64,000 nucleotides of DNA from assembly GCA_964276515.1 (NCBI GenBank), contig OZ193909.1, positions 13,888,001-13,952,000 of the forward strand, written 5' to 3'. Under the pieces are notes generated by a model. The model worked only from the letters and a program-made list of their open reading frames with translations, did not search any database and was not told the DNA's origin. The translations under genes were made by a program, and so were the position numbers. This document shows positions 1,813-62,290 of this stretch, piece after piece. This DNA is from Gordius albopunctatus (taxonomy: Eukaryota). How positions within the stretch are numbered: position 1 is the first letter of the stretch; the number at the start of each line of letters is the position of its first letter.

Positions 1813-1833
1813 ATTCACCCTGAGACATTAAGT

Positions 1834-13520: not shown

Positions 13521-16500
13521 ATGTATTTAAATAATGTAATATTTCAGATATTGTTGTGTCAAACATTGTTTATTACAGGTGAGTATAAAAATTTTCTATT
13601 TACAATATATAATTTTATAATTTTATAATCTTAAACGCTTTATTCGGGTAGAAACCGAATTAACAAGGTCACCTAATTATATTTATCATATTTACTTTTT
13701 TATATTTTATTCAAGTTTCATATTCTTACATTTAAAATTAATTAATAAATGCTGTTTAAATAATGTTTTTAAGAAGATAATAATAACCCATTTTAGGAGT
13801 GCCGCAATTAAATTAAAAAGTTCACTCTAATTGGCGATTTTAATTAGAGACTAATTTGACTATATATATCCCTATCTTTTTTTTATCGTGTGACTCGAAT
13901 ATGATAATAGTAGGGAAACAAATTTCTTTACTATCCCATGACGAACACAAATCTTTTTTTATAGGACAGGAAGTCGGTATATCCAAAAAATTATTATAGA
14001 TTTAATAAAAATATGGCTAAAATATATAACAATTATTTGGGCCCTCCCTAAACCATTATTGCCCCCCTCTAATTTTAATGCTGGCTACGCTCATACACTT
14101 CAGCCTAAATTTTTTAGAAAAATAACCTTGAACTTTTGTTTTGTGAATATTATTTCATCACCCCCAAAAAATATTTATTAAAACACCTTACACATTAGCT
14201 CTGATACGAGTCTATAGACTATATCTAATAAATATTTTTTGGGCTCTGAGGGCGGTTCGTTGTTTTTTAACATTTTGTTCCTATCTAACGTTTATATATA
14301 GCTCGCCCTTAAATTTTTAACTACGCAAATACGAACACCATATAAATTTATTTGCTTAAATAACACACGTTACCTGTAAACTTTGAGAGTTGCTTTAAAC
14401 AAATTCACTTCTTTCCAAATTTGAAAATTCATGCATTGTAATCAAGCATATTTATTCCTATATTTTTCACACGTGTCTGTGCTGCTTTAACACTACCTAA
14501 GACGGTTCCAAATCCGTGTAAAAAAAGCTCCAAAACTATGATAGTTTCAAACAAGATTTTACAAGAAAAGTCTAGGGCGTCCTCCACAAACGACGCGCAC
14601 TGCATACCCCGCCCGTGCAATGTAAAAAATACACTAGAGTTACTGCCCAACTCACAACGAAGGCGGTCAAGGAAACTAGTTGTGGAAAGAATGCGAATTA
14701 CGTGCTGGAATGTGGGAACGTTGACGGGGAAGAGCATCGAGGTCGCACAGATGCTAAAAAGAAGAAAGGTACACATCGCCTGCCTACAAGAGACGAGGTG
14801 GAACGGAACGAAAGCTCGGGAATTAGGAGAAGGATACAAGCTTTTCTACAGTGGGTCATCAAATCGTAGAAACGGGGTCGGTATCGTTCTAAGTGAATTG
14901 TTCAAGGACAAGGTGATGGAAGTAAAGCGTTGTTCCGACAAGCTAATGTGGGTGAAGATTGCAGATCAAGGGGGGGGGAGAGCTCCTAACCGTTATGTGC
15001 ACGTATGCCCCCCAAATTGGATGTTTGGAATCAGAGAAAGACATATTCTTCGATTTATTGGAAAAGGAAATACAAGGAATCGGACAGGAAGAAAGGCTAA
15101 TTATTGGGGCAGATTTCAACGCTCACGTTGGGAAAGATTGCCTCGGGTATGAACGCAATCATGGAGGCTATGGGCATGGTCTGAAGAACAAAGAAGGGGA
15201 AAAACTTCTCCAAGTATCCCAAGCATATGACATGGCGATCGTTAACACCTATTTTCAAAAGCGCGAAGATCATATTGTGACCTATAGAAGTGGGAAGCAT
15301 TTTAGTCAAATCGACTATTTACTTATACGGCGAAAGGACTTATGGAGTATCAAGGATTGCAAAGTGATAACGGAGAAGAAATCGCCAGGCAACATCGTCC
15401 CCTTGTTATGGATCTTGATAGAAGAGTATTTCCCGAAAGAAGAAAGGTCTATGAACCTCGAATTCGATACGAAAGGCTAAAGGATACGTCGAGGAACAAA
15501 GAATACCATCAAAAAGCCTGCTCACTCTTGGGTGCAAGGAAGTTGCAAAGGGACGTAGACGACGATTGGGAGACGCTATCTAAGGACATTAAGGAAACAG
15601 CGATTCGTGTTCTAGGACAGACCAAAGGAGGCAAAGCTATGATAAGGGAACTATGGTGGTGGGATCAATCGGTTAAAGATTTCATCGAAAGAAAGAAAAA
15701 TCTATATAGACGGTGGCATAAATCAAAAAAGTCGGAGGATTATCAAGAGTACAGGTACGCAAAGAGGGCCGCAAAAAAGGCCGTTGCAAAAGCGAAGAAT
15801 GCCGCGTACACCGAGATGGCAAACAAACTGGATCATAAAGGTGGCGATAGGCTTATGTACAAATTGGCCAAGATAAGGGAGAAGAAAAGTCTCGATGTCG
15901 GAGTTCTTTAAATAGTCAAAAGCGAGTAGGGTCAAACCTTATTCAAGCCGAAAAAAGTGATGGAAAGGTGGAAAGGATATTTTAAGGAACTTATGAATAT
16001 TGCAAACGACAAGGATTCCCTTCCCGAAATTATGGTCGAACTCTTTCAGGAGGATGAAGTTAGGACACAAATGAACAAGATGCAAAAAAGAAAAGCAAAT
16101 GGTCCAGATGGAATACCTATGGAAGCATTGCTCGGATGTCGTGAAGAAGGAGTCACCACCATGACGAACCTCCTTAACAAGATATTGGTAGAAGAGCGAA
16201 TCCCTAATCAATGGAGAGCAAGCACGATTATACCCTTATTCAAAGGAAAAGGAGACCCTCAGGACTGCGGCAATTACAGAGGTATCAAGCTAACTTGTCA
16301 CTCCTTTAAGCTTTTGGAAAGGATCTTAGTAACAAGGCTCAAAAGCGAGGTGGAAATATCGGCTAATCAATTCGGATTTGTGGCCGGCAAATCCACAATC
16401 GACCCAATCTTCGCCCTGAGACAAATGATGGATAAGTATGGTGAAAAGAGGAAATACCTACATATGGTTTTTATCGACTTAGAGAAAGCTTATGACACGG

Positions 16501-18107
16501 TCCCCTGCGACTTAATATGGTGGTGCCTGAGGAGACAAAATATCCCTGACGCATATATACGGCCTATGAAAAATATTTATGAAGCTTCAAACTCTTGCGT
16601 TAGGACGACAGTTGGAGACTCTAAACCTTTTCGGGTTAATATTGGATTACGTCAAGGCTCTGCTTTAAGTCCCTTTTTATTTAATATAATTATAGACACG
16701 ATAACGAGAGACGTTCAAAAGCCTTCGCCATGGTGTATGCTATATGCCGATGATATAGTACTATGCGAGGAAACAAGGGAGAAAGTATTCGAAGAAGCCG
16801 AAAAATGGTCCAAGCGCTTAGCTGGATATGTTTTAAAGGTCAACGATAGAAAAACGGTATACATGGAAATGAACGGTACAGGCACCCCGTCGCTGGATGA
16901 CCACCTAAAGTACCCAAAAGTAGACAGGTTCACATACCTCGGCTCGATGTTACATCAAGAGGGAGGTTACACAACAGAAGTCAATGCTCGGATCCAAAAA
17001 GGATGGCCTAAATGGCGAAGTATATCCGGTGTAATGTGTGACAAGAAAATGCCAATATGGTTGAAGAGCAAAGCTTACAAATCCATCGTAAGACCGGTGT
17101 TACTCTATGGAAGTGAAACATGGGCATTAAACACCACGGAAGGAAAGCTATTACAAGCCACAGAGATGAGAATGATACGGTGGAGCTTGGGGTATACTAA
17201 GCTCGATCATATGACGAATGACTTTCTCATGACAAAAATGGGTATTCAATCTATGGCAGACATGATTAACGAAAATCGGCTAAGGTGGTATGGTCATATA
17301 CTAAGGAGGGATACAGATGACGTAAATCGAAAAGTACTGGACATGGAGGTACCGGGGAAGAGAGGAAGAGGAGTTATGGAAACTAAAGATATTAGTCAAG
17401 CCATAGCACTCACCCGGTCAAGATGGAAGAAACTTATCAAAACAAACCCCACCAATGTGGGACCAAATAACTGATAAAGAAGAAGTCTGTGCTGCTCTAA
17501 GGTTAGTTTTTCAAAGTCATTTTTCTAATGAAATAGGGCTGTAACTTTATATGGCTCAGATTTATTTGAAAAAATTTTTAACAAAAATTATCCCATAAAA
17601 TTCTAACAATTAACTTATCAAGAGCATATTGCTGCGCTGCGATTTAATTTTTGATAAGCTTGAGGAGTGCTTCTTTTAGATCATTTTTCTCTTTTTTATA
17701 TCCATTTTAACTCTTAAATTAATTTACTTATAATCGCATATCAAGCTTAAATTATCTCGATTTATAAGCAAATGTGTTCTGCTTCCACTATCCTTATTCG
17801 GACAACTGGAGATGGACACCCCCCTCCCAATTTTAAATAAACCCTAACATTAATGTTGATGTAAAATTTGATGTTTAACACATGAAGCAATTAAACTCTT
17901 TTCAATTGTTATTTAACTTATAAACGACATTTATTTTTTTTAAATATTTTTAATAAATTCGCTTGTACATATAATTTGATATTATATTTATGGACCATGT
18001 AGGCTCATCTCATGAAGTACCACCAATCTATTTTAACTTTACAGCTCAGTATGACGACCATTCGTTACATACAAAGGACGCTGGCAGCAAACAATTTGAA
18101 AATTTAA
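13521..18107 (+). CDS. Putative secreted protein, first two coding exons (13521-13578, 18003-18107); downstream exons not located
   Basis: Exon 1 MYLNNVIFQILLCQTLFITG (signal-peptide-like) ends at a strong GTGAGT donor in phase 1. Phase-compatible exon SSHEVPPIYFNFTAQYDDHSLHTKDAGSKQFENL is flanked by TAG/GTATG. RTE copy 2 would lie in the intron. Confidence 0.4.
14488..14527 (+). ncRNA. Twister ribozyme, 5' portion (mutated, 3' part deleted) at the 5' end of RTE copy 2
   Basis: T^AACACTACC-TAAG-ACGG-TTCCAAAT-CCGT follows the twister order UAA/P2(CACU)/T2/P4/L4. Confidence 0.7.
14489..17484 (+). mobile_element. RTE-clade LINE copy 2, essentially full length, frameshifted, with TSD
   Basis: APE and RT ORF pieces 14538-17474; (GAA)n tail; TSD gtctgtgctgct(t/c)taa at 14475-14490 and 17485-17500. 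Confidence 0.95.
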
Positions 18108-18136: not shown

Positions 18137-19080
18137 TTTTTTTTGTTAAAAAGTTTATTTTCAAGAAACAAAGTTACATTAATAAGCAAAATACAAAAAT
18201 TAAGACATATTGGTTAAATACAAAGATCTATATCATTCTCTTCTAAAATGGGCCATGAGTCGGCAAAGGATTTAAAGTTGTATCCTGCAACAAGAATCCC
18301 TACTTGTTGCCTGAGTAAAAAGGACGTGGAAATTTTAGATTTCGGGGTGCGTTTTCCGATTTCTTTAAAAAACCCCATTGCCTGTTTTCCAAAAGACCCA
18401 GAGCACGTGGCAACGACAGGGATAAAAATATTGGATACCAAAAGGGCAGAATACTTTGTAGTTTTACGCCCTTCTTCTGTAGCGATAGGGTCGTAATTAA
18501 AATGGGAAGGTGCAAAAAGGTCAATACAAGTAAAATCCCATTTGAGGGATAGGCCATTTTGCCAGGGGACTAGAGAAGAGCCGTCAGGGCGCATCCTACC
18601 TTCAAGGGAGGGATCGGACGGCTCAAGGATTGAGGGGATTTTGGCCTTTTTAAGGGCAGCTTGAATTAATAAATTAGCTTTAGTGTGCCTAACGTATTTA
18701 TATTTGTTTGCTAGGCAGTGTAGAGGGTGCCTAGCATATTCGTCTACAACGGTAAGGCAGTTTTGACAGTTGAATTCTCTGCTGTAACTAATCCCTAACC
18801 TTAAAGCTATGGAATATCATAGCTCAAAGTCTTCAAGCAGCATTCCCAAAAGTTTGCTAGGATAGGCTTCAAGCCACTCGTGACCGGAACCGTCAAAAGC
18901 GAGGGACCTAAGGTTGTAATGCTGGCTATCATCGCTGCTCGATAAGAGGTAATCAACGGAGCGCGATACTAGCCCAGAATCCCAATCCTTTTGTCTCGTA
19001 CTTTGAGGTTGGATGGTCTCGGGTGTGACATTCAAATTCCAAAGCTCCAAGGCTTGAGTTAGCAGGGGGTCGGAATCATA
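18137..19080 (-). mobile_element. CRE-like non-LTR retrotransposon 3' fragment (CCHC finger + restriction-like endonuclease) with polyA end
   Basis: RPDGSSLVPWQNGLSLKWDFTCID motif, upstream WLEAYPS and C..C...H..C; AATAAA and A-run on the minus strand at ~18137-18160. Confidence 0.8.
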
Positions 19081-19708: not shown

Positions 19709-22700
19709 TGTGGTGAGCTGCGTAGTTTATATATGTATATTTGTGTTGTGTTGTATGTGTACTACCAACTGTTAACGAATTGCGTGTGATATACTACTAA
19801 TTTCCATTTCGCGATTATCAACAATCATTATCCTTCGGCTCGATGATTCTAAATATCTTCATTTAAATAAACTATGACTAAATCATATCAACGTACTAAC
19901 AGTGGTGACACCGACGTTAGTTTCAAGCTTCCCGAGTTCGATTCTGATAATTCCAGAGGATGGTTTGCAAGGATAGAAACACTATTTCGTCTACGCAAAG
20001 TAAGCAACCCTACAAATAAGTTGGCCTTGCTACTCGATGCATTACCTCAAAATGTTTGTACAGAGGTTAGAGGTGTGCACGGATCAAATTTTTTTGATCC
20101 GATCCGATCCGAGGGGTTTTTAAAAAAATTCGTATCCATCCGATCCGAGTTTTTTAAAATCTAAATCCCATCCGATCCGATCCGAAATTTTTTAATTAAA
20201 TCTTTACGAACAAAACTTTTTATTGATGATTAAATTCAAAATACATAAAAATAAGGTATAGCAATTTTAATATACTTGAAATATAAAATTTTATTTGACT
20301 AATTCCATGTTATCATATAAAAATAATAAAGAATCTAAATTTTCTGGTTTAATTCGCGTTCTTCTTTCTTCTAATGTTCTTCCAGCCACCGAGAAATTTC
20401 TTTCCGAAGTGGTAGAGGTAGCAGGTATAGCTAAAGATTTATTTGCCAGCTTATAAAGCCTTGGCAGGAAATTTGTCAAATGTATTTTTAGCTGAAGTTT
20501 TTGGAATACATTTATAATGCAAAAGATGGGAACTACCTCGAATGGAATTATATGTGTAGATATGATGGCATTTCTTGCATATAACATAACCGGTGTATGT
20601 ATCATTTTCATTTAGAAGGTCAAAGTAACTCCAAATTTGACTTTTTCCATCTTCTTTTTTAACTTGTTTGAGAAGATTTTTTTAAAATTTTTTTTTATTA
20701 TTTCTTCCATGACGGTTTTTAATCTGATAAACAATATTGGTGTATTTGCTAGCTGTTACGAATCCAAATGATTATTTCCAACACCCCCCCCCCCATTATT
20801 TTTTCCCCTTAAGTCAGCGTGACTCACACCAGACAATAGCCCTGCTGCAGCATGGAGATTGCTTCTAAGAAGGCAAGCTACATCATTCATGATTACCCGA
20901 AATCAAGAGGGAAAGGAGCTACGCGTGTGCTTTAAGGAAAGGGGAGAGTGATTGATGATTTTCGGAGTTGAGTTGAAATGAAATAGAAAGAGATGCGTGT
21001 CTACGTCTAGCTAGGGAAAAACGCTAGGGAAATTCCGATAAATATATTAGGGTAAGTAAGGGGTAAGGAGGTGATATTGGGCATCAAAATTGGTAAAGTA
21101 AAAAAAGAATGCAAAGATAATTACGAAAAGGTATACTAAAAATTATTAATTTAATTATTATTGTATCCGATCCGATCGGACTAAAATAAAATGTTGATTT
21201 GATCCGATCCGATCCGACTTCCAAAATTAAAATGTTAATCCGATCAATTGCCAGGTCACTTTACCAACATTCTCGCAGTTTTCGCTACTGAGCAATGTAC
21301 GTCAAAATTAGCCGAGATGGCCGATCAAATAGCTGAGGCAAATCAGAGCAACACCATACATAGCTTATCTACTAATAATGAAATTTCAAGCCTAAAAGAG
21401 ATGGTGAAGAAATTATCACTGGAAGTCCAGAAACTATCGGCAAATTCTGCCAGATCCCCTACTCGGCCGTTTCCCCCCCCCCCATAACTCACGTCGCTCT
21501 CTTTCCCCTGATTATAATAACGCCAGCGACGTGTGCTAGTACCATAAAAATTTTAAAAACAACGTCAAAAAATGTGCTCCTCCCTGCTCCTTCGCGTCCC
21601 GATTTTCGACAAACGCCTATACCAGCCGGGAAAGGCGACGCCCGAGCTCGGTCATATTCATCGTAGTCGCCTATTTTATATCATTGACAAACTTTCCGGA
21701 CACCGTTGGCTCGTCGATACCGGCACGGACATCAGCGTCCTGCCAGCTAAATCAAGTCAATGTTCCCTACCTGCCCCTTTTCAATTACAATCTGCTAACA
21801 ACAGCTGTATCAAAACCTACATTCAAATTCTTTTGTCGCTTGATCTCGGCTTACGAAAAACTTTAAGGTGGTTATTTACGATCCCAGACGTCAAAACACC
21901 CATTTTGGGGGCGGATTTCCTCGATTTCTTCAATCTCACAGTAGATTTAAGAAGGAAAAGATTGTTACACCCGCAGACAGCGACAATACCAAATGGTGTA
22001 CCCATCTCAACAACATCTTTAAGAATTCAGTCTTGCTCCCTACCGTTGGAGAATGAATTCGCAATTTTATTAAACGAATTCCCGGAAATAACCAAACCTC
22101 CGGACTACAGAAAGCAGGTGCATAGGCCGTACATCACATTCCCACTAAAGGACCGGCATCTTACGCCAAACACGGCGATTAAACCTGGAAAAGCTTACAA
22201 TTGCAAAGGAGGAGTTCACACATATGTTGGAGCTTGGAGTCATTCGACCATCACAAAGTAGCTGGGCTTCTCCTTTGCATATGGTTCCCAAAAAACTCAG
22301 GGTGATTGGCGACCCTGTGGAGATTATCGTCACCTAAACAATCAGACGATTCCTGATCATTATCCCCTACCCCACATCCATGATTTCTCAATAAACCTAG
22401 CTGGAACCACAATATTTAGCAAGCTTGATTTAATACGGGCGTATCATCAGAACCCCGTTGCTCCCCAGGATATTTACAAAACGGCGGTGATAACACCATT
22501 TGGAATCTATGATTTCTTGAGGATGCCATTTGGTTTGCGGAATGCGGCTCAAACGTTCCAGCGTTTCATAGATCAAGCTTTCCGAGGATTTCCTTTTACT
22601 TTTGCATACCTGGATGATGTTTTGGTCGGAAGCAAGTCTAAGGAAGAGCATATTCATCATCTCCGTCAGGTATTCACACGGCTAAAACAATATGACTTAA

Positions 22701-23595
22701 AAATCAACACTAGCAAATGTCAATGGGGGCTAAGTACGGTAGATATTTTGGGACATAAGGTTTCTCCGACGGGTTTAGCTCCACTACCAGAGAAAGTTAC
22801 AACGATAGAAAATTTTTCTATTCCTAGATCTATAACGCAACTTAGAAGGTTTATAGGCATGTTAAATTTTTATCCACGTTTAATTCCCCAGTGTCCTCAC
22901 CTCCTCAAGCCACTAACCGACTTGCTGGACGATAAAAAAAGGGCCAATCATCATGACGAAAGACTCTATAGACGCTTTTAAGAAGGCAAAAGGAGCTATT
23001 GCTGACGTCACACATTTGGCACACATTGAGGAGGGCGCAACTCTTTTGTTGACAACGGACGCTTCAAACGCAGCTGTAGGAGCCGTCCTCAATCAAATGA
23101 AAGGTGGTAAAACTAGCCCTATAGCCTTTTATTCGCAAAAACTTACGCCGGCACAAGGCCGTTACAGTACTTTTGGACGGGAGCTACTTGCCATTTGTTT
23201 GTCAATAAAACATTTTAGGCATGAACTTGAAGGTCGTGACTTTGCAGTTTATACTGACCCCTTTGACCCATGACTTGTTTTCCACACCTGACAGGTATTC
23301 CCCCCGAGAAACTAGACATCTAGATTACATATCGCAGTTTACGTCAGATATTAGGTTTATCCGTGGCCATACTAATATTGTAGCCGACACGTTGTCCCGC
23401 GTGGACATAGACAGCATTCACCTTAAAAGTTTATCTTTAGAGCAGATAGTTAGATCTCATGAATTAGAATTTTACAACCCCGACCAGCTTTCGTCGCTTA
23501 AAATTTCCGATTTCCCTATTCCAGGTTCAAATTTGACGGTTAAATGTGACACCTCTTGCGCCACACCACGCCCGGTTATACCTACTTCGATGACG
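19709..23595 (+). mobile_element. Gypsy/Ty3 LTR retrotransposon, internal region (PBS-like site, gag, protease, RT, RNase H), truncated before integrase
   Basis: TGGTGAGCTGCG PBS-like site at 19711; gag KLPEFDSDNSRGWFARIE; protease [22 protein letters not shown] and YLDD; RNase H LTTDASN...RYSTFGRELLA; many frameshifts. Confidence 0.9.
20068..21246 (-). mobile_element. One-ended non-autonomous hAT element in Gypsy gag, carrying a hATC dimerisation-domain remnant
   Basis: Terminus TAGAGGTGTGCAC, (ATCCG)n subterminal repeats; ORF 20291-20611 LAIPATSTTSERNFSVAG...RTRIKPENLDSLLFL. Confidence 0.85.
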
Positions 23596-26180
23596 AGTCT
23601 TTTTCGGAACAATATGCAAAGGAGAAGCCATATGTGCGAACTCCTCATTTGCAATTATAAGCTTTTCCATGTTTAATCGCCGAGGTTTGGCGTAAGATGC
23701 CGGTCCTTTAGTGGGAATGTAATGCACGGCCCATGCACCTGCTTTCTGTAGTCCGGAGGTTTGGTTATTTCCGGGAATTCGTTTAATAAACTTGCGAATT
23801 CATTCTCCAACGGTAGGGAGCAAGGCTGAATTCTTAAAGATGTTGTTGAGGTAGGTAAACCATTTGATATTGTCGCTGTCTGCGTGTGTATCAATCTTTT
23901 CCTTCTTAAATCTACTGTGAGATTGAAGAAATCAAGGAAATCCACCCCCAAAATGGGTGTTTTGACGTCTGGGATCGTAAATAACCACCTTAAAGTTTTT
24001 CGTAAACCGAGATCAAGCGACAAAAGAATTTGAATGTAGGTTTTGATACAGCTGTTGTTAGCAGATTGTAATTGAAAAGGGGCAGGTAGGGAACGTTGAC
24101 TTGATTTAGCTGGCAGGACGCTGATGTCCGCGCCGGTATCGACGAGCCAACGGTGTCCGGAAAGTTTGTCAATGATATAAAATAGGCGACTACGATGAAT
24201 ATGACCGAGCTCGGGCGTCGCCTTTCCCGGCTGGTATAGGCGTTTGTTGAAAATCGGGACGCGAAGGAGCAGGGAGGAGCACATTTTTTGACGTTGTTTT
24301 TAAAATTTTTATGGTACTAGCACACGTCGCTGGCGTTATTATAATTAGGGGAAAGAGAGCGACGTGAGTTATAGGGGGGGGGGGGGGAGAACGGCCGAGT
24401 AGGGGATCTGGCAGAATTTGCCGATAGTTTCTGGACTTCCAGTGATAATTTCTTCACCATCTCTTTTAGGCTTGAAATTTCATTATTAGTAGATAAGCTA
24501 TGTATGGTGTTGCTCTGATTTGCCTCAGCTATTTGATCGGCCATCTCGGCTAATTTTGACGTACATTGCTCAGTAGCGAAAACTGCGAGAATGTTGGTAA
24601 AGTGACCTGGCAATTGATCGGATTAACATTTTAATTTTGGAAGTCGGATCGGATCAAATCAACATTTTATTTTAGTCCGATCGGATCGGATACAATAATA
24701 ATTAAATTAATAATTTTTAGTATACCTTTTCGTAATTATCTTTGCATTCTTTTTTTACTTTACCATTTTTGATGCCCAATACCACCTCCTTACCCCTTAC
24801 TTACCCTAATATATTTATCGGAATTTCCCTAGCGTTTTTCCCTAGCTAGACGTAGACACGCATCTCTTTCTATTTCATTTCAACTCAACTCCGAAAATCA
24901 TCAATCACTCTCCCCTTTCCTTAAAGCACACGCGTAGCTCCTTTCCCTCTTGATTTCGGGTAATCATGAATGATGTAGCTTGCCTTCTTAGAAGCAATAT
25001 CCATGCTGCAGCAGGGCTATTGTCTGGTGTGAGTCACGCTGACTTAAGGGGAAAAAATAAGGGGGGGGGGGGGGGGGGGGGGGGGGGTTTGGAAATAATC
25101 ATTTGGATTCGTAACAGCTAGCAAATACACCAATATTGTTTATCAGATTAAAAACCGTCATGGAAGAAATAATAAAAAATTTTTAAAAAAATCTTCTCAA
25201 ACAAGTTAAAAAAGAAGATGGAAAAAGTCAAATTTGGAGTTACTTTGACCTTCTAAATGAAAATGATACATACACCGGTTATGTTATATGCAAGAAATGC
25301 CATCATATCTACACATATAATTCCATTCGAGGTAGTTCCCATCTTTTGCATCATAGATTTATTCCAAAAACTTCAGCTAAAAATACACTTGACAAATTTC
25401 CTGCCAAGGCTTTATAAGCTGGCAAATAAATTTTTAGCTATACCTGCTACCTCTACCACTTCGGAAAGAAATTTCTCGGTGGCTGGAAGAACATTAGAAG
25501 AAAGAAGAACGCGAATTAAACCAGAAAATTTAGATTCTTTATTATTTTTATATGATAACATGGAATTAGTCAAATAAAATTTTATATTTCAAGTATATTA
25601 AAATTGCTATACCTTATTTTTATGTATTTTGAATTTAATCATCAATAAAAAGTTCTGTTCGTAAAATTTTAATTAAAAAATTTCGGATCGGATCGGATTT
25701 AGATTTTAAAAAACTCGGATCGGATGGATACGAATTTTTTTAAAACCCCTCGGATCGGATCGGATCAAAAAAATTTGATCCGTGCACACCTCTAACCTCT
25801 GTACAAACATTTTAAGGTAATGCCTCGAGTAGCAAGGACAACTTATTTGTAGGGTTGCTTACTTTGCGTAGACGAAATAGTGTTTCTATCCTTGCAAACC
25901 ATCCTCTGGAATTATCAGAATCAAACTCGGGCAGCTTGAAACTAACTTCGGTGTCACCACTGTTAGTAAGTTGATTTGATTTAGTCATAGTTTATTTAAA
26001 TGAAGATATTTAGAATCATCGAGCCGAAGGATAATGATTGTTGATAATCGCGAAAATGAAATTAGTAGTATATCACGCGCAATTCGTTAACAGCTGGTAG
26101 TACACATAAAACACCAGGAATATCGAATTTACACAATAAATGACACAAATATACATATATAAACTACGCAGCTCACCAAA
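23596..26180 (-). mobile_element. Inverted duplicate of the Gypsy 5' region (PBS, gag, protease, RT start)
   Basis: Reverse complement of 19709-22299 with scattered substitutions and indels; ORFs 23673-24284 and 24317-24613 mirror 21572-22261 and 21248-21487. Confidence 0.9.
24614..25794 (+). mobile_element. Mirror copy of the hAT element at 20068-21246
   Basis: ORF 25257-25577 nearly identical to 20291-20611; terminus GTGCACACCTCTA at 25794, at the same gag position. Confidence 0.85.
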
Positions 26181-32779: not shown

Positions 32780-33100
32780 TGACCATATGACGAATGACTT
32801 TCTTATGACAAAAATGAATATTCAACCTATGGCGGACATGATTAACGAAAATCGATTAAGGTGGTATATGAAGATATACTAAGGGGTACACGAATGACCT
32901 AAATCGAAAAGTACTGGACATGGAGGTGCCGGAGAAGAGAGGAAGAGGACGACCCCGTGCCACATGGAACAGGCAAGGCGATAAAGTTATGAAAACTAAA
33001 GAGTAGTTAAGACATGGCACTCATCCGGTCAAGATGCAAGAAACTTATCAAAACAAACCCCAGGACCGTGGGACCAAATAACTGATAAAGAAGAAGAAGA
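32780..33100 (+). mobile_element. 5'-truncated RTE fragment (same family as copies 2 and 3)
   Basis: DHMTNDFLMTKM...ENRLRWY and 3' end gggaccaaataactgataaa(GAA)n match copy 2. Confidence 0.9.
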
Positions 33101-34766: not shown

Positions 34767-35680
34767 ATAAATTGATCGATTTTAATTCAAACACCGAACA
34801 GGATTTATTTTTGAAATAACATCGTTTTTATTAATATTTGGCATAGCCAGCATTGGAATTAGAGGGGGGGATAATGATTTAGGGAGGGGCAAAATGAACA
34901 TATTTTGCAATTTTAACCATAATTTCAACAAATTTTTGGATTTAGAGGGGGGAAGCCACCCTCCCTGCCCCCCCCGGCTACCCCTAGCGATGGGAATGTG
35001 GATATAAAATTTTTAAATACGATTTAATTGCTCCTATTATCCTTATGTCATATCTTCTAATCAGAGGCTATTAATACAAGTTAAAGTTATTGAAACATTA
35101 GTAATTGGCCTATGTAATATTCAATCATGTTTTCAAATAAGGTTTTATAATGATCAGCCAAGGGAAGGCAAGTATGGACATTACTACTACCTTTTTTTGT
35201 CCCATGCTGGCTACCTTAGGGTTCTTTTCTTTTTGAAGGATAAATTCATTAATCACTTAAAAATTATAATTAAATGGCAGGTAAAAAATGTGAATTTAGA
35301 TTCATGTTGACTATGAAATATCTAATGGGCTTAACAGGATTTGAATGGGGTGGGGTTGGGGCTAAAATATCAGTTAAGGATTTTGGGAGCGGCGAAATGA
35401 GGATTTTAAGAATTATATATATGTTTAAAGATTTTTAAATATAAGGGGGAGGCCCCTCCCCTCCTAGTTTCCCCCTGGCAATGTCCATGTCCTTTTTTGA
35501 ATGATTAATTTATTATTTATAATTATATTTTATTTGTCATAATACTGTTATTTTTAGAGGTGCCACGTGAAAATTTCATCTTTTTATCTTAAAAAATTTG
35601 TATCAATTCAGCCGTTTACTTTAAAATATTACTAAAACTTCAAACCAAGTATTTTGTATATTAAGGATTAATAATTAAAA

Positions 35681-35714
35681 TCCCAAGTCCGTGTGCAAAA
35701 AGTGGAGGGTTGGC
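35681..35714 (+). ncRNA. Twister ribozyme, 3' portion at the 5' end of RTE copy 3
   Basis: TCCCAAGT-CCGT...AAAAGTG-GAGGG-TTGGC corresponds to twister L4/P4'/P2'/L1'. Confidence 0.75.
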
Positions 35715-38037
35715 GTCAGGTCGGAAACCGGCTATAAAAATCAACTCCAAAACTATGATAGTTTCAAACAGGATTTTACAAGAAAAGGCTAGGGCGTCCT
35801 CCACAAACAACGCGCACTGCATACCCCGCCCGTGCAATGTAAAAAATACACTAGGGTTACTGCCAAACTCAGAACGAAGGTGGTAAAGGAAACTAGTTGT
35901 GGAAAGAATGCGAATTACGTGCTGGAATGTGGAAACGTTGACAGGGAAGAGCATCGAGGTCGCACAGATGCTAAAAAAAAGAAAGGTACACATCGCCTGC
36001 CTACAAGAGATGAGGTGAAACGGAACGAAAGCTCGGGAATTAGGAGAAGGATACAAACTTTTCTACAGTGGGTCATCAAATCGTAGAAACGGGGTTGGTA
36101 TCGTTCTAAGTGAATCTTTCAAGGACAAGGTGGTGGAAGTAAAGCGTTGTTCCGACAGGCTAATGTGGGTGAAGATTGCAAATCAAGGGGGCCTCCTAAC
36201 CGTTATGTGCGCGTATGCCCCCCAAATTGGATGTTTAGAATCAGAGAAAGACATATTCTTCGATTCATTGGAAAAGGAAATAGAAGGAATAGGACAGGAA
36301 GAAAGGCTAATACGTTGGGAAAAATCGCCTCGGGTATGAACGCAATCATGGAGGCTATGGGCATGGTCTGAAGAACAAATAAGGGGAAAAACTTCTCTAA
36401 GTATCCCAAGCATATGACAAGGCGATCGTTAACACCTATTTTCAAAAGCGCGAAGATCATATTGTGACCTATAGAAGTGGGAAGCATTTTAGTCAAATCG
36501 ACTATTTGCTTATAAGGCAAAAGGACTTATGGAGTATCAAGGATTGCAAAGTGATACCGGGAGAAGAAATTGCCAGACAACATCGTCCCCTTGTTATGGA
36601 TCTTGACAGAAGAGTATTTCCCGAAAGAAGAAAGTTCTATGAACCTCGAATTCGATACGAGAGGCTAAAGGATACGTCGACGAACAAAGAATACCATCAA
36701 AAAGCCTGCTCACTCTTGGGTGCAAGGAAGTTGTAAAGGGACGTAGATGACGATTGGGAGACGCTATCTAAGGACATTAAGGAAACAGCGATTCGTGTTC
36801 TAGGACAGACCAAAGGAGGCAGAGCTATGAATAGGGAACTATGGTGGTGGGATCAATCGGTTAAAGATTTCATCGAAAGAAAGAAAAATCTATATAGACG
36901 GTGGCATAAATCAAAAATGTCGGAGGATTATCAAGAGTACAGGTACGCAAAGAGGGCCGCAAAAAAGGCCGTTGCAAAAGCGAAGAATGCCGCGTACACC
37001 GAGATGGCAAACAAACTGGATCATAAAGAGGGCGATAGGCTTATGTACAAATTGTCCAAGATAAGGGAGAAGAAAAGTCGCGATGTCGGAGTTTTTAAAA
37101 AAACTCTTGCGTTAGGACGACAGTTGGAGACTCTAACCCTTTTCGGGTTAATATTGGATTACATCAAGGCTCTGCTTTAAGTCCCTTTTTATTTAATATC
37201 ATTATAGACACGATAACGAGGGACGTTCAAAAGCCTTCGCCATGGTGTATGCTATATGCCGATGATATAGTACTATGCGAGGAAACAAGAGAGAAGGTAT
37301 TCGAAGAAGCCGAAAAATGGTCAAAGCGCTTAGCTGGATATGGTTTAAAGGTCAACGATAGAAAAACGGTATACATGGAAAAGAACGGTACAAGCACCCC
37401 ATCGCTGGATGACCATCTAAATTACCCAAAAGTAGACAGGTTCACATACCTCGGCTCGATGCTACATCAAGAGGGAGGTTGCACGACAGAAGTCAATGTC
37501 CGGATCCAAAAAGGATGGCCTAAATGGCGAAGTATATCCGGTGTTATGTGTGACAATAAAATGCCAATATGGTTGAAGAGCAAAGCTTACAAATCCATCG
37601 TATGACCGGTGTTACTCTATGGAAGTGAAACATGGGCATTAAACACCACGGAATTAAAGCTATTACAAGCCACAGAGATGAGAATGATACGGTGGAGCTT
37701 GGGGTATACTAAGCTCGACCATATGACGAATGACTTTTTCATGACAAAAATGGGTATTCAATCTATGGCAGACATGATTAACGAAAATCGGCTAAGGTGG
37801 TATGGTCATATCCTAAGGAGGGATACGGATGACGTAAATCAAAAAGTACTGGACATGGAGGTACCGGGGAAGAGAGGAAGAGGACGACCCCGTGTCACGT
37901 GGAAAGGGCAAGTCGATAATGTTATGGGAACTAAAGAGATTAGTCAAGACATGGCACTCAGCCGGTCAAGATGGAAGAAACTTATCAAAACAATCCCCAC
38001 CAATGTGGGACCAAATAACTGATAAAGAAGAAGAAGA
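35681..38037 (+). mobile_element. RTE-clade LINE copy 3 with an internal deletion of roughly 0.7 kb
   Basis: Highly similar to copy 2; the junction at ~37095 joins copy-2 position ~15905 to ~16589; (GAA)n tail. Confidence 0.95.
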
Positions 38038-40958: not shown

Positions 40959-42036
40959 ATTCCTACCGCCTAAATTCAATAATAGGGGAATGCTTAGTTT
41001 TGTTGTTGATACAGTAACTTAAGTAGGCTACATTTTAAATATAGACTAAACTTTTAAAGTAACTTGTGAGAGTAGGATATTAGAGGAGACAAAATAAATA
41101 ATAGTATCAAATAACTCTGGGTGAATGCAGTGTTTTACAGGAATAAGCCTGACATTTTAAGAAATGTTCTTCGTTGCGGTTATTTTATTTAGCAAATATA
41201 ATTTAAATCTTTTTTAATGAATATAATAGAGCATGTCCGTTAGATTAATCCTTATTTCTCCATAATCTCCTGCGCTGATAGTGATAAAATCTGCATATAA
41301 ATGTGTCATTTGGTTTGTGTGTTCTTAAATTTTTTTATTTCATTTAACTTTATTTATAAGTCATGTAATTAAAATATTTCAACATCAAGGAGCTTTATCA
41401 CGTGTACATTGCTGTTAAAGCCATTTATTTTAAAATTTTATAATCTACAACTGCGGGCATCAACAATGATAATTAACTCGTAATTTTTTCTAAATTGAAT
41501 ATAAGTATTTTTATAACATTCTCATTGTTTTCACCGATAGCATTTGGTAGTACAGAAGGCTTAAATAGATTTTAGTCGCTAAAATCATTATAGATTCTTA
41601 AAATCGTCAAATGATTCGTATAAATTAATTAAAATTTTTAGTTAATGATTGTATCTTCCATTTTGAATCAAAATAAAATCATAACAAATCATAACGCACA
41701 ACATTTTTAAAAGACATGTTGTATAATATTCGAGACATCAATTAATGTAAATATTAATAATTATATTCCATATTAGGCACAACTATTATTAAGAGCAAGA
41801 TGTTTAAGTGATACCTTTACCATGTCCTCCCCATTAATTTACTCATTGAAATATAAAAGGTGTCAGTAGCAAAGGAAGTAAGTGTGTCTCGTACAATTAC
41901 GCATACATTGATTGCCATGAAACTTATCCTTTATTCATATAATAGCAATAGTTCACGAATTGACTTATTTGATCCAAGAAATTAACACATTTTACGAGAA
42001 ATTTTACCATAATTTAGGGAGGAAAATTTCTTAAAA

Positions 42037-42831
42037 ATGAATAAATCACATAAAATTTCAAACATATCATCTATCAATATCCAATCATCTCTTTCAAATA
42101 TTGGCGTCAAACAAGTGAAAACTTCAAATTATTTGCAAATATCAGGTAAAAATGACAATCCGAAATTAGATGTAGCATATTCATCCTCTAAGACATGTTC
42201 TAAAGAAGAGTACTCATCCGATGATGAAATTTGCCAAGAAAACTGTTGTGTTCCAGATGAGAAATTGAAGTATTTTCCATACAATTTCAATAATTATCCA
42301 CCAACTTTGAAAGAATCCCTAGAATTTCGTAAAAATACGAAAAATAGATTTTCAAATTGTTTTTCAGCCCCACGTCAAATTTATTCGTCAGAAAATCATT
42401 TCATGCCATCACCTTTATTAATGTCCAGCTCTATGCACGAACAATACGCCTTCTTGCAAACTTATTTTAAAGCCCAACATGCTTTAGCCGATTCCTATCG
42501 TAGCTATAACCAATCAAACACAACCAATCATAATAGTAATACATTGTTGAGAGAACATACTAAATCACAGTCTAAGCTTCACTGCGAGACGATAAAATCT
42601 CCAGAATCGAGTTCCCAAAGAAATACCAGGTTTTTCAGAGCCCCTAAATGTGCCCGTTGCAGGAATCATGGTTTAATTTCGGCCTTGAAGGGTCATAAAC
42701 GGTTTTGTGGTTGGAAGGATTGCGAATGTGCTAAATGTTGTTTAATTACTGAAAGGCAAAGAGTTATGGCAGCCCAGGTTGCTTTAAGACGTCAACAAGC
42801 TCAAGAAGATTTAGTCGCTGCAGATGTTTAA
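42037..42831 (+). CDS. DM-domain (doublesex/mab-3 related) transcription factor, closest to the DMRT4/5 (Dmrt99B) type; DM domain at the C-terminus
   Basis: [65 protein letters not shown] at 41852; AATAAA at ~42947. Confidence 0.93.
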
Positions 42832-50550: not shown

Positions 50551-52849
50551 TAGTGATGGGAAAACGCTTAGCAGTAGCGCGCTTAGCACCTCCCCGCTGA
50601 TGGGAATAGCCTATTAAATACGCTATGTCTACTAGCACATAGTCACTTTAAGTGCTATAAGCTATAGGAGATGGGAGGTTTGAGGTGCTAGAGCTATAGG
50701 AGATGGGAGGTTTGAGGTGCTATGAGCTATAGGAGATGGGAGGTATGAGGTGCTATGTGCTATAGGAGATGGGAGTTTGAGGTGCTATGTGCTATAGGAG
50801 ATGGGAGGTTTGAGGTGCTATGTGCTATAGGAGATGGGAGTTTGAGGTGCTATGTGCTATAGGAGATGGAAGTTTGAGGGGCTATGTGCTATAGGAGATG
50901 GAAGTTTGAGGTGCTATGTGCTATAGGAGATGGGAGTTTGAGGTGCTATGTGCTATAGGAGATGGGAGTTTGAGGTGCTATGTGCTATAGCCGATTGCAC
51001 TTAAATGCGCTACTCCTATAGCACCGGCGCTAACACTGGGAATAATTTTTTTAATTGTTTATTTTGTTTTTATTAAATATTAAAATACATCTGAATATAA
51101 TTTTTTTGCCCTATCTTACCATCTAACTACGACTTATTTTAATATAAATATTTAATTAAATGTATGACTTTAATTTTATTTTGCATTGCTTCTACATTTA
51201 TTTTATCAATAAGTCGCCCCGCCCCCCTCTGAATGACGGAAAAAAATTTTTTCCAATGTACCTTACATATTAATAATTTTTTTTTATTTAGCCCCTCCCT
51301 AATTCAACTTTTATTTTAACCGTTTGGCCCCCCCCCCTTAATTCAAAACCTAGTTATGCCCTACGCCCATGTTTTTGAGAATAAAAAAATTAAACTCCCC
51401 CTTTCCTTAAGTTAATATGTTTCAATTAAAAGGAAAACAATACTATTGAGTGAACTTTTATGCGTTTGCGTACTCAGACTCAGACAGTCTTAGTCTGAGC
51501 TGAGTCATAATTACCAAGAAAAGGTTACGGTTATCTCCAACTTCCTTAAACCAAATGCTATGCATGAATAGCTGGAAAGTCAATAATTAACAAAATATTT
51601 GCCTGTTTTATTATATTTATCAATATAACTAATATATATATAATGCGAAATGGTCGAAAATAAAGTTATCGTAGTTTGTGATTTTTAACGAGTGTGTTTT
51701 CATATAGACGTTGATAAAGATATCTCACTTGGGAAATCTTTTATTATATTTCCCAAATGTAACATAAAATAAGTACTTTAACCGGCTGATATAAAACACA
51801 TTGGAAATATTACACTTAAAGATTAAATTTGTTATTTAAGTCGGATTTATATTGGTTATTAATTAGTGACCAACCATTACCTTTTTTAAATATTCTTAAC
51901 ATAAGTTTTATGTTGAGGTGACCGGGGCTAGTCGTAGCCAGGTAAATAATTATTTTTCATAAAATTAATATTTTTATGTTGAGTTGAAGAAAAGGATAAA
52001 GATATTAAAGATGAGAGCGAAAAATTAATTTTCTTTTTATCACTGACTGAATAAAAATAACATGGCATGAGTGAGTATGCGTACTCAGACTCTGAGATCT
52101 GAGTACGCATTAAAGTTCACTCTTCTTACTCTTAGGTTTTCCTTTTGATTGAAACATAATCGCCCTGATGGGATATGGATTAACTTAAGGGAAGGGGGAG
52201 TTTAATTTTTTTATTCTCAAAAACATGGGGTAGGGTAGGGCATAACTAGGTTTTGAATTAACCCCCCCCCCTCCCCGATTGAAAAAAAGTATTTTTTTAA
52301 ATATTAAACATTTTGTTTAAAATTTATAATTTAAAATACTTAGCATAAATTACTTAGCAATTTGTAATTATTTACTTAGCAGTTAAATAACACCCTTTTT
52401 TAATTTTGTTTTTTCGAACAATATATTTTTAATGGAAAATTGTTTATTAGATTACACACAAGTTCATATTAACTCTATTGTTTTCATTGAAATTATTCCC
52501 AGTGTTAGCGCCGGTGCTATAGGAGTAACGCATTTAAGTGCAATCGGCTATAGCACATAGCACCTCAAACTCCCATCTCCTATAGCACATAGCACCTCAA
52601 ACTCCCATCTCCTATAGCACATAGCACCTCAAACCTCCCATCTCCTATAGCACATAGCACCTCATACCTCCCATCTCCTATAGCACATAGCACCTCAAAC
52701 TCCCATCTCCTATAGCTTATAGCACCTCAAACCTCCCATCTCCTATAGCTTATAGCACCTCAAACCTCCCATCTCCTATAGCTTATAGCACTTAAAGTGA
52801 CTATGTGCTATAGCTTTAGCTCCTTAAAAACGCTATTTCCCCATCACTA
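50551..52849. mobile_element. Foldback composite hAT insertion: two inverted MITE copies (50551-51038, 52500-52849) plus a captured, partly palindromic middle; 8-bp TSD
   Basis: Both outer ends are TAGTGATGGG in inverted orientation; aataaaag at 50543-50550 and 52850-52857; inner inverted repeat ~51338-51480 / 52098-52261. Confidence 0.85.
50655..50990 (+). repeat. 32-33 bp minisatellite, ~10 units (mirror array of ~7 units at ~52548-52790)
   Basis: Unit gctataggagatgggag(g)tttgaggtgctatgt, no spacers. Confidence 0.95.
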
Positions 52850-56897: not shown

Positions 56898-59800
56898 TAG
56901 TGTTGGTAAGAGAATCTTTATTAATTTTTGGAGATGACAAAACAAAACGCACGATTAAACATTTGTAGCGAAGATGTAGTATTAAAACATAGGAATAGAT
57001 ATGTTACGAACATTAATGGGATAGAGTAACGTAATCCTGTAGTTATGTCATGGGATGTAGTGAGGAGAAGAATTCAATGTAATTAGAGAATTATGTGTCA
57101 CCTCTACAAATTTTCAATTGGCTACCTAATGTCGCCAATGTCTAAACATTGCAATACTCCCCTTCCAGATATATTTAAAGTTTTAAATATGTCGATAAAA
57201 ATTGACTGAAAATTATGTGATGTATTCACGAAGGTTTTTCGGCCAATGGACTTTTCTGCCTTTTCTAGTTTATTTGGCTGGTTCTTCTGCCTCTTGTGTT
57301 GTTGCTTCAGCTTGAGTTTCGTCGGCGGTCTGAAAGAATGGTTCCTCTTTACTTAGATGGCAGGGTTTTAATCTGTCTATTGATACTGAATCTCTTTTAC
57401 CATGTTTTTCTATGACGAAGTATTTGGGTTCGCGTTTTAAAACTTTAAACGGTCCGTCATACGGTGAGGTGAGTTGACTACCAACTGTGTCGTTTCTGAC
57501 GAAAACATGAGGTGTTTCTAACAAATCTTAACTAACCTGGTCTTTTGGTTTCCTGTGGTGTTGCGGTATGGGGTACGGTATTGCAATCATTGCCTTTCTT
57601 AGTTTGTCTACAAACATATGCAGTTCCGCTACCGATTGTTGGTTGGCCTCAGGTTGCTCTAGAAATTAATCTCCAGGGAGTCTTATGTTGGTTCCATATA
57701 CGAGTTCAGATGGTGTTAGTCTAATGTCTTCCTTGATTGTGGCACGGATACCAAGTAACGCAAGTGGAAGAACTTTACTCCATTTGATTTTTTCGGTGGC
57801 TTTTAACGATGCCTTTGTGATAGGCGGTGGTTTTTATATGTTTGCACCCTAATGTGTTGGAAAGTTGTCTGAGAAGTCCTAACTGAAACTGAGATCCTCT
57901 GTCGGTAGTAATTGTACTTAGGACACCGTAATTGGCTATCCAACTTTCAATTAGCTTGGAAACGATCTCTTCGTTAGATGTTTTTTTGAGTGGAACGGCG
58001 ATGGGCCATCTCGAGAAACGATCGATTGCTGTCAAAATGTGAGTTAAACCGTTTGAAGGTGGTAGTGGTCCAACTAAATCGACATATATGTGTGAGAATC
58101 GTGCGTCTGGTTCTGCAAAAGTTCCGGGCGTCGTTATAGTGTGTTTATGATAGAGATGCACCGATACCACTATTTTGTGCCGATACCGATACCAGCCGAT
58201 ACTTAAGATTTTTTTGCCGATACCGATACCATGCCGATACTTATAATAAAAAATTTTTATACTAAAAAATATATGCAAATTAAATATTATAAATTAAGTC
58301 ACATCCAAATTTTGGTAGATCAGAATTTTGACGATAAAACAATTGTAATATAATATTAATTTATAATAATAAATTTTGTTATTAATTAATTCATAAGTAT
58401 TGTAATTAATAGATCAAAAAAGAAATTTAAATTTTATTATGGTACACTTTATATTTTATTAATACATAAATTTATTTTATAAAAAAGGAAATATACGTGT
58501 AATATGCTTAAATTAAAAACTAATATTGAAAATTTAGTTCTCTTATGTTCAACTTAACAATTGTTTATTGTTCTATTTTCTCCAAAAGAAGCCTTCTTCT
58601 CCTATTAGAATCTATCTCACTCATCATACTGAATAATGATTCTGATGGTACTGTTGTTGGTGGTGGGCCTAGATATCTTCTGGCTAATTTCAGAAAAATA
58701 ACGTCGACTTAGAATGAAATATTTAGGACACATTTTTTTATTAATCTATTAAATCCAATATCTTCTACAATTGAAAAGGGTTGTGACTTGTGAGTCCAAT
58801 GCAATCATTTCAGCAATTAATTGAGTAATACTCTCTGCTTTATTATGTGTACTATCCCACATTTTATTAAGTTCAATCACTTCCTTTAATGTAGATTGAA
58901 TACCAGAAGCTGGTTTTTGTTTATTCAAATTAATCTTTTTTGTATTAATATCACTTTAATTTTTAAGAACACTGCGAAATTCGATTGGATGTCTAGTTTT
59001 TAAATGTTTCCTTAAATTTGAAGTATTAACGGAATCTTTGTCTTTGCCCCCACGACTTATTTTAGCTTTGCATAATTCACAGATTACAATATTTTCATCT
59101 GCTGACACAACAAAATAACTCCATAGTGTATCTAAAGAACCCATTTAAGGCTTAATATATAATAATTTTTAAAATAATATTTACTTAAAAGCGGAGTTAT
59201 TCGGAACAGATGGTGAATGAGTTTATTATACTCAACATAGAAATATTTATAGCCAATCAAATGAAACAATTTTAAAAAAATTTAAAAAGTCCTCTATTTT
59301 TTAATGGTAGGAGATACTATAAATATTATTTTTTGAGTTTCATATTGAAAAAGGTATCGGCTTGGTAATTGCCGATACTAGCAATGTATCGGCAAATACT
59401 TTTGGCAAAGTATCGGCGCCGATACCATGCCGATACTTGGTATCGGTGCATCTCTAGTTTATGAACTTTGTTTAGTTGGCATTTTAAACAACACTTAGCC
59501 CAATTTCTAACGTCTTGGTTCATCGAAGGCCAGACTACTCGATTTGTAATTATCTTCAAAGTGGCGCGTATGCCTGGGTGTGATATAGCGTGGAAATGGT
59601 CGAAAACTGTTTTTCTGAGTGTTTCTGGAATGACCGGTCGAGGTTTGGTAGTTGAAAGATCGCAAAGGATTTTTCTCTCGAATGCTGGCATTGGCAATAA
59701 CTGTAACTTTAAAGATGATGATTCCTTTAAGCTTTTCAGGGATTTGTAATTTATCTGTTGTCTGCTAACTCTTCTAGATCGGGCATTTCTGGCAACTTGA

Positions 59801-62290
59801 TAGCATCCACTCCTAACCGAGAAAGTGTGTCCGCGACTCATTTCGCTTTGCCTTAGATGTATTGTATATCTGTGGTAAATTGAGATATAAAATCCAGTTG
59901 CCTGGTTTCTCGTGGCGAGTATTTGTCAGGTTTCGCATTAAATGCGTAGGTTAAGGGCTTATGGTCGGTAAAAACGGTGAAGTGTCGACCTTCTAACATG
60001 TGTCAGAAGTGTTTGATAGATAGGTAGATGGCGAGGAGTTGTCGACTGAACGTGCTGTACCGTGACTGAGCTGGTTGAAGTTTAACCGAAAAAAATGCCA
60101 CAGGCGAAGTTTTTTCTGATACAGTTTGTTCCAACACTGCACCCACCCATGAATTGGAGGCGTCTGTCGTCAACGTAATTTTGGTTTTTGGGCTGGTGTC
60201 CTAATAATTTAGAGTCGTGAATTCACTGAGCGCGTCTTTAGCCTTGTCGAACGCTTTGATCTGACTGTCGTTTAAAACGACGGATTTTCGAGGATTTTTA
60301 AGTATGTCAGTTATTGGCTGTAGGGTGTGTGCCATTCCTGGTAAGAATCTCCGGTAAAAATTTATCATACCGAGGAATCTACGGAGTTTTTTACTTGAAT
60401 CCGGAATTGAAAAATTTTGAATGGCATCAATCTTCTCTGGTAGGGGGTTTATACCCGTAGAAGATATTCTGTGTCCCAGAAATTCTAATTCTCCGACTCC
60501 GAATTGGCACTTGGCAGGATTGATCCTCAAATCATACTCTTGTATACGTTTAGCAACGGTTTTTAGGAGCCTTTCATGGTCCGCGTCGGACGAACTAGCT
60601 AATAGTATATCATCTATATATGCGTAGGTTCCTTCTATCCCTCTTAAAACTACGTCGATAAACCTCTGGAAAGTTTGTGCGGCGTTTTTTAACCCAAAAG
60701 GCATTCTACGAAATTCGTAGAGTCCGAACCGTGTCGTTACGGCTGTCTTGCAAATGTCATCTTGTGCAGCCGGAATATGATGGTAAGCTCTTACCAAATC
60801 CAATTTAATAAAGACTGTTTTTCCGCATAGATTTGCTGTGAAATCGCGGATGTGGGTTATTTGGTATCGGTCGGGAACCGTTACTTTGTTCAGGCTTCTA
60901 TAGTCCCCGCAGGGTCTCTAATCGCCAGATTTCTTAATTGCCAAGTGTAAGGGGGAAGCCCAATTGCTTTGTGATTCCCTGATAATGCCGAGTTCTAGCA
61001 TATACTCAAATTCTTTTTTAGCTGCTTGTAGCTTGTCGGCCGCCAATCGTCTGGGGCGTGAATATTGTGCTGGGCTTTTGGTTATTATATGATGAAGAAC
61101 GTCGTGAGCTGGTATTTGTTGGGAAAAATATAGAGGTGATAGGAGCGACGGAAAATCTTTTAACATGGCCTCTAATTTAGAATTCTGATAAGTGAATGCT
61201 ACACGAATTCCAAACGTTTGGTGAGGCGAGGTGAATCCTCTTGATGATAGGTGTGTCACTCCGTCGCTTAATATTTTTTTTTGATGTCCACAATTAAATT
61301 GTGTTTGTGTAACAGATCAGCTCCTATAATCGGCGTGTGAACGTCTGCTATCAGGAAAATCCATTGTATCTCACGTCTTAGGCCTAGGTTTAAAGCTAAC
61401 CTTTTGTCCAAAAGTGCAGATGTTACTTTTGTTGGCAGCTTGCAAAACCGGACCATTTAGAATTTTGGGGAAATTGGTTGGCGGTGGAATAATGCTCACT
61501 TCGGCACCAGTGTCGATAAGAAATTTTTGTTTCGACGTTTGGTACATAATGTAGAAAAGACGAATGTTTGAATCTGAGCCAGTAGTAGCCGTCGTCTGAA
61601 CCACCCGGCCTGTTAGTTTTTTTGATTGTCATCACTGAAGGCGCAGGACTTTACGCCTTTGCGAGCCTTGTCCTGGAATTTGGAATGATAATAACAGTAT
61701 GGGTGCTTTTGTGTCCTGATCCGTGAATTACTTCTTGTCCGTACTCTTCCATGGTAGGAACGTTGAGATAAATTGTTTATCTTTACCTCTAAATTACTAA
61801 TTTTTTGTGTTAAATCCTGTATTGCCTTGTCAATATCTGTGGATTTAACTATAGAAGTAATATTACTATTTTGTGACATTGTTTCATATATCCGGTCAGC
61901 GACTTCAGCTAAACTTGATAGAAAATTTTCCTCCCCCAAACAGGTTAGAATTCCAGTAATCTCTTTAGGCATTTTGTTTACCTATAAGTTCCTAAGAATT
62001 GTATCGCTCATTTGATGCTCTCCTAGTAGGGACTTTAAATGTCGTAATAATTGAGATGGGGATTTTTCACCCATGTAAATTTATTTAAAAAGGTTTTGGA
62101 TTCTCTTAGTGTCACTTTGTCCAATTTTTTTTAATCAATGCTTGTTTTAAGGCATCATATGGATTCTCTTCAGGGATGTTAAGGATGAGATCTGCGACCT
62201 CTTCTGCCACTTCTACGGGGAGAGATTCTAATAAATATGCCTATTTTACCTTCTGAGAAGATATCTTCCTGGTTGAGAATATAGCATCGA
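56898..62290 (-). mobile_element. Gypsy/Ty3 LTR retrotransposon (second family): gag-PR-RT-RH-IN plus 3' LTR (~56898-57156); degenerate, 5' end lost
   Basis: FLIDTGAEVS, YIDD, HPGIRAT...WAKCCLKCQ, VDLVGPLP...TDRGSQF, GPF motif; polypurine tract GGAAGGGGAG at 57157-57166 on the minus strand. Confidence 0.92.
58151..59456 (-). mobile_element. Internally deleted hAT element (BED finger + hATC remnant) inserted in Gypsy integrase
   Basis: TIR TAGAGATGCACCGATAC; TSD gtttatga at 58143-58150 and 59457-59464; ORF 58956-59144 LWSYF...CELC...NTSNLRKHLKTRH. Confidence 0.93.

Follow-up and report, generated by a model that had tools for sequence, protein, structure and literature searches.

Positions 35681–35714 of the forward strand most probably carry the 3′ remnant of a twister ribozyme (probability about 0.88), situated on a 5′-truncated copy of an abundant RTE-like retroelement family. 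Fuller copies of this family hold a whole twister core of A–U type and start at its predicted cleavage site, where the RNA is likely to cut itself free of the host transcript. The window analysed here, 64,000 nt of Gordius albopunctatus DNA, contains two partial versions of the ribozyme, at the heads of two related elements (copies 2 and 3), and the joined core comes from contigs of public runs.

Twister remnants in copies 2 and 3

The segment at 35681–35714 corresponds to the 3′ portion of a twister of type P1 and heads the RTE-like copy 3. It opens with L4 (UCCCAAGU; 35681–35688), which includes the CCC strand of pseudoknot T1 and, at 35687–35688, the 3′ strand of pseudoknot T2 (GU), and which is also the 5′ break point of the copy. 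The 3′ strands of P4 (CCGU; 35689–35692), L2 (8 nt; 35693–35700) and P2 (AGUG; 35701–35704), all compared with the Rfam twister-P1 consensus, lead to the 3′ strand of L1 (GAGGG; 35705–35709), a T1 strand, and then to that of P1 (UUGGC; 35710–35714). The predicted general base is G35705, a role assigned from the matching position in the rice twister Osa-1-4. The letters are those given by a sequence-only reading of this DNA, and its identification of a twister is borne out: the window has a single match to TCCCAAGY-N8..22-GAGGG, a pattern absent from all of 100 shuffles, and copy 3 scores 19.0 bits (E 7e-5) against a profile made from 14 natural twister loci.

Copy 2 reaches 8.6 bits (E 0.12) with the same profile. 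Copies 2 and 3 are the only places in the window that the profile finds, and 20 shuffled windows gave at most 6.4 bits, although there is some circularity in these scores, a similar motif having served to find the training loci. Rfam scans of the whole window and of 35640–35780 returned no twister, only chance matches. This null result is uninformative, since the window copies are partial and complete canonical type-P1 twisters also fall below the gathering score (57.9 and 60.6 bits versus 67.2). Minimum-energy folding of the remnants is uninformative for a double pseudoknot.

Copy 3 opens with the initial base of L4. Its break at 35681 shows no microhomology, and no target-site duplication, exact or mismatched, was found for this copy. 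Copy 3 had been described as a complementary half of the ribozyme. We regard it instead as a truncated and decayed copy, which is predicted not to cleave alone because it lacks the 5′ strands and the site of cleavage. A 6-bp hairpin is predicted in its 5′ untranslated region after the ribozyme (35719–35733, forward strand; −6.9 kcal/mol, pair probabilities of at least 0.9), and an A-rich run comes after it.

Copy 2 retains the 5′ portion of the ribozyme at 14489–14517 of the forward strand, comprising A+1, A+2, the 5′ strands of P2 and T2 (AC), L2, the P4 hairpin and a decayed L4. U14488 precedes the AA (14489–14490), after which come CACU (14491–14494), AC (14495–14496), ACGG (14502–14505) and the decayed L4 (14506–14513). 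A 42-nt deletion after 14517 has removed the 3′ strand of P2, GAGGG and the 3′ strand of P1. L4 carries two changes (14507 and 14512), and both T1 and T2 are broken: copy 2 on its own holds both partners of one T2 pair, A14495 and U14513, and the other pair has lost its G, at 14512. The flank of copy 2 offers no in-register P1 pairing. Lacking the general-base strand, copy 2 is likewise predicted not to cleave alone.

Copy 2 is bounded by a 14-nt target-site duplication (14475–14488 on the left and 17485–17498 on the right, both on the forward strand). Its left member ends in the U that precedes the predicted cleavage site (position −1), and the duplication therefore adjoins A+1. When 14475–14490 is set against 17485–17500, 15 of the 16 letters match, the last two being the first AA of the element. 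Because the match ends in the element's AA, the target supplies U−1 together with 2 nt of microhomology with the element start, the AA at 14489–14490 matching the target's next letters at 17499–17500 across the 5′ junction.

Copies 2 (14489–17484) and 3 (35681–38037) are 96% identical over 2250 aligned bases. The endonuclease–reverse transcriptase frame of copy 2 (14538–17484 with its GAA tail, forward strand) is broken by two frameshifts and two stops. That of copy 3 (35755–38022, forward strand), a single frame encoding an AP endonuclease and then a reverse transcriptase, is also broken by frameshifts and stops, has a 676-nt internal deletion in the reverse transcriptase region relative to copy 2, and is followed by a short 3′ tail with GAA repeats (38023–38037, forward strand). 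The ATG of copy 3 aligns with residue 1 of the full-length homologue P0016, and the frame shared by copies 2 and 3 is colinear with homologues of 991 and 996 amino acids from their start. There is one AP endonuclease–reverse transcriptase frame (Pfam PF03372, PF14529 and PF00078) and no separate ORF1. Homologues, which carry no clade names, are found in insects, fish and plants at 40–46% identity. GAA tails end both copies, and a target-site duplication is found in copy 2 only. Architecture and homologues thus fit an RTE-like family. A related RTE-like family, about 70% identical, is represented by copy 1 (1833–4717, forward strand), at whose 5′ end the twister profile scan detected no remnant. 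A 3′ fragment of the copy 2/3 family, 88% identical to copy 3, lies at 32781–33100 of the forward strand. Target-site duplications, exact or mismatched, were not found for copy 1 or for this fragment.

The complete core across the family

We aligned contigs of the public runs X1, X2, X3 and X6 (two studies) to 35620–35900. Contigs with loose ends before 35681 numbered 129, 138, 102 and 108 in X1, X2, X3 and X6, respectively, and the same 17-letter consensus, given as letters without per-position frequencies, stood upstream of 35681 in all four runs: AA, CACU, AC, CUACG and ACGG. Within 35681–35721 no alternative letter was listed at 3% or more among the contigs of the four runs. Depth rises about a thousandfold at 35681 in all four, a step that is not a copy number. 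The evidence on the family consists of these contigs, and the run contributing most may be the window's own source. As 102–138 contigs per run join both halves, the family core is complete, and AC and GU, which the sequence-only reading could place together only by merging copies 2 and 3, occur in one molecule in four runs. The merged core is right overall apart from one letter of L2, where the family has CUACG and CUAAG is a private change of copy 2. Its P2, P4, T1 and T2 pairings hold in the contig core.

In L4, in P2 with its internal loop and in both pseudoknots, the core has the features of a type-P1 twister. L4 reads UCCCAAGY and is closed by P4, as seen in copy 3 with the 5′ strand of P4 taken from copy 2 and the contigs. 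P2 and L1, with N^AA on one side and GAGGG on the other, are both present in the family, each window copy having one side only. T1 (CCC/GGG) and T2 (AC/GU) are able to pair in the family, the 5′ strand of T2 being absent from copy 3. Both predicted catalytic residues, the general acid A+1 and the general-base G, are kept.

Upstream of the AA the consensuses of the four runs disagree and are AT-rich, and position −1 is U in two runs and A in the other two. Flanks unrelated to one another would be expected to look like this. In run X1, coverage of copy 2 jumps close to 14489, where a flank depth of 274 gives way, over a few bases, to one of about 34,000. The disagreeing flanks and this step in depth indicate that the shared sequence starts at the predicted cleavage site. 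Since it starts at AA, the element encodes neither N−1 nor the 5′ strand of P1. The proposal that this strand comes from flanking DNA is therefore upheld, both by the differing flanks of the family contigs and by the copy 2 duplication that adjoins A+1. Runs X7, X9 and X10 gave 13, 1 and 2 contigs on copy 2, none over the ribozyme part, and no cross-species covariation. No family copy, complete or otherwise, was present among 72 metagenome stretches scanned.

Known relatives and the A–U pair in T2

The twister-headed RTE is already known as an arrangement, and the family adds another example of it. Passages of Liu et al. 2021 (PMC8501958) describe Perere-3, an element of the RTE clade from Schistosoma mansoni with a 'T-variant' twister; each of its 113 full-length copies has a twister at its 5′ end. 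Perere-3 duplications adjoin AA, the target forms P1, and the ribozymes cleave in vitro and in reporters. As in Perere-3, a type-P1 twister heads a single-frame endonuclease–reverse transcriptase element in Gordius, the element's 5′ end and the duplication lie at the predicted cleavage site (in copy 2 and at the family boundary), the duplication adjoins AA, the 5′ strand of P1 derives from the target, and UUGG starts the 3′ strand of P1 after GAGGG. Unlike Perere-3, the Gordius family has no P3 stem and its T2 is AC/GU, as against GC/GC in all seven rows of Table 1 of that paper. Its ATG lies 45 nt after GAGGG (about 112–147 nt from ribozyme to AUG in Perere-3), its tail is GAA rather than GTAA, the host differs and its cleavage is predicted from sequence.

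In its core the family closely resembles Osa-1-4 from rice, which, in passages of Kobori and Yokobayashi 2016 (PMC5113685), has the same P2 strands, L4 and L1 and no P3. At G13–C31 and C20–G35 of Osa-1-4 the Gordius family has A–U, and these are the only differences outside L2 and P1. L2 differs, its 3′ strand being 3 nt longer, and P1 is not self-contained. In its element, the family resembles HmRTE-e01 and BmRTE as described in passages of Tay et al. 2010 (PMC2887409), with a single frame of about 990 amino acids for AP endonuclease and reverse transcriptase, a very short 3′ untranslated region with GAA repeats, short duplications and many 5′-truncated copies. The copy 2 duplication is 14 nt long versus 6–12 nt in those elements, and a ribozyme is unmentioned in those passages.

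The occurrence of AC/GU instead of GC/GC in T2 had been called a double compensatory change. In fact one pair is changed on both sides (G–C to A–U) and the C–G pair of T2 is intact. Nor is the form surprising, an A–U pair in T2 being frequent in natural twisters and its rescue having been measured in rice in 2016. The consensus of both Rfam families, twister-P1 (RF03160) and Twister-P5 (RF02684), is GC/GC. When either letter was allowed in viral contigs, GU was found in three of nine distinct matches and GC in six. Over both scans, 50 of 75 distinct twister matches were parsed (25 were unparsed, and at least locus L015 is mis-assigned). Those with GU in L4 had AC as partner in 35 of 45 cases, GC in eight (a wobble) and another dinucleotide in two, and those with GC had GC in five of five, counts that are not overall frequencies because the metagenome scan asked for GU only. 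The AC/GU loci L001 and L005 pass the Twister-P5 gathering score, and L011, L026, L033 and L072, also AC/GU, match twister-P1 with E values of 1e-6 to 3e-11. An endonuclease frame lies downstream in five GU loci. As L072 is among them and has AC, the pair also occurs in another retroelement family. In L033, type-P1 twisters (237–291, 645–708 and 956–1010) alternate with RAGATH-11 RNA (318–434); L050 has four twister matches, at least three of permuted type, ahead of short genes.

The double-mutant matrix of Osa-1-4 (supplement of PMC5113685, values located by counting matrix columns) gives relative activities of 0.17 for G13A and 0.89 for G13A/C31U, and of 0.94 for C20A/G35U, the other pair swap of the family. 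The displayed portion of the G30A row has values of 0.11 or less throughout, except for the rescuing C14U; G30A is a change carried by copy 2. Hence, the disrupt-and-rescue experiment on T2 has already been done in a close relative. No values for T2 stand in the passages of PMC9901934 or PMC6765202. The A–U form of T2 is common and already shown to be active in a rice twister, and the covariation is not new.

Target-supplied P1 and rival explanations

A plausible life cycle can be drawn by analogy with these systems. A host promoter would read into an intact copy, as is assumed from Perere-3. The core would fold with T1 and T2 and cleave between N−1 and A+1, as in Perere-3 and Osa-1-4, which would free the RTE RNA from the upstream host transcript. 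The cleaved RNA, with a 5′ untranslated region of about 91 nt, would be translated and then, on the Perere-3 model, copied by reverse transcription at a new target. This target would supply N−1 and any 5′ strand of P1, and P1 would probably tune cleavage rather than switch it.

P1 is the one stem of which the element encodes the 3′ strand only, so that its pairing depends on the flank. With UUGGC as 3′ strand, in-register P1 helices of at least two pairs are available at 27% of window sites, and at 50% there is no pair next to the junction. The insertion site might thus act as a strong on/off switch, such that only copies with a UUGG-pairing flank cleave and stay mobile, a view compatible with the twister fold and close to one that the sequence-only reading had raised. 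Passages of Liu et al. report rates that vary with the flank and propose an effect of the insertion site on activity (PMC8501958). Against this, passages of McKinley et al. 2024 (PMC11662667) report that the length, stability and imperfections of P1 had essentially no influence on cleavage and that any of the four bases was tolerated at −1, and in passages of Kobori et al. P1 is called non-essential, although both assays are end-point and may hide differences in rate. We consider strong insertion-site dependence doubtful because natural twisters tolerate P1 imperfections and any base at −1. McKinley et al. also find cleavage sensitive to mismatches in the 2-bp pseudoknot (PMC11662667).

The same frequent lack of good in-register P1, and its complete lack in the flank of copy 2, could suggest that the fold does not cleave at all and is kept for structure, in translation or in handling of the reverse transcription template, with the AA boundary made by an internal promoter or by reverse transcriptase run-off. 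This seems improbable, as the family keeps the catalytic residues and both pseudoknots, its boundary falls exactly at A+1 as cleavage predicts, and passages of PMC11662667 report activity for about 94% of the natural twisters assayed, with no loss of cleavage when P1 was imperfect. That copies 2 and 3, which together cover the whole core, assemble a ribozyme in trans is very unlikely: they lie 21 kb apart, they overlap in P4 and L4 such that the copy 2 hairpin competes, their breaks are independent and their frames decayed, and the family already has complete cores. A chance resemblance or an artefact of merging would account for the lack of an Rfam match in the window, but the shuffles speak against it and it is refuted by the more than 100 contigs per run that carry both halves joined. 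Hence, we favour a cleaving twister at the head of the intact elements. The family adds one host to the link between twisters and RTE elements, which in the literature found was tested only in Schistosoma, and the link holds with an A–U pseudoknot pair and without P3. Liu et al. 2021 and McKinley et al. 2024 point, in their passages, in different directions on P1, and a high-copy family with a fixed core and many natural flanks is a convenient panel for whether target-supplied P1 matters.

A bulged hairpin lies within 36 nt after GAGGG in eight retroelement-like loci (L013, L041, L048, L055, L059, L068, L072 and L077). Its first base is the second or third nucleotide downstream of GAGGG, within the 3′ strand of P1, and an A-run follows its end. 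In a nine-row alignment, with copy 3 among the rows, pairing is possible in 78.5% of cells and five of the nine pairs change on both sides. The covariation score of this alignment is 0.284, and 2 of 500 shuffles scored as high, which is only a lead because the structure came from the same sequences and the set is small. In copy 3 (35710–35740) UUGGC stays outside the best hairpin, which is displaced in the 3′ direction. Such a hairpin is unmentioned in the keyword passages of PMC8501958. We offer, as a speculation with the odds well against it, that RTE twisters are built to regenerate their cleavage site: the 5′-AA would anneal to a target AA, as in copy 2, the target would give N−1, the wobble-rich UUGG would accept many flanks, and the downstream hairpin, conserved in related families, would compete and set the extent of P1, making a position-sensitive switch of mobility.

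The window holds other repeats and part of a DM-domain gene, which marks the host as an animal. A long inverted repeat at 19748–26114, with arms of about 2.4 kb that are 92–99% complementary and 1.5 kb apart, surrounds broken, LTR-retrotransposon-like frames that include a reverse transcriptase. Reverse transcriptase, integrase zinc-binding and integrase core pieces of an LTR retrotransposon lie at 57775–60917 on the reverse strand. A foldback-like element at 50609–52814 has inverted ends made of 32–33-nt tandem repeats. The segments 18214–18816 and 62483–63138, in opposite orientation and 71–73% alike, each have an open frame with no Pfam match and may be the nuclease end of a further non-LTR family. 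An open frame at 42013–42831 ends in a DM DNA-binding domain, as in an exon of doublesex/DMRT type.
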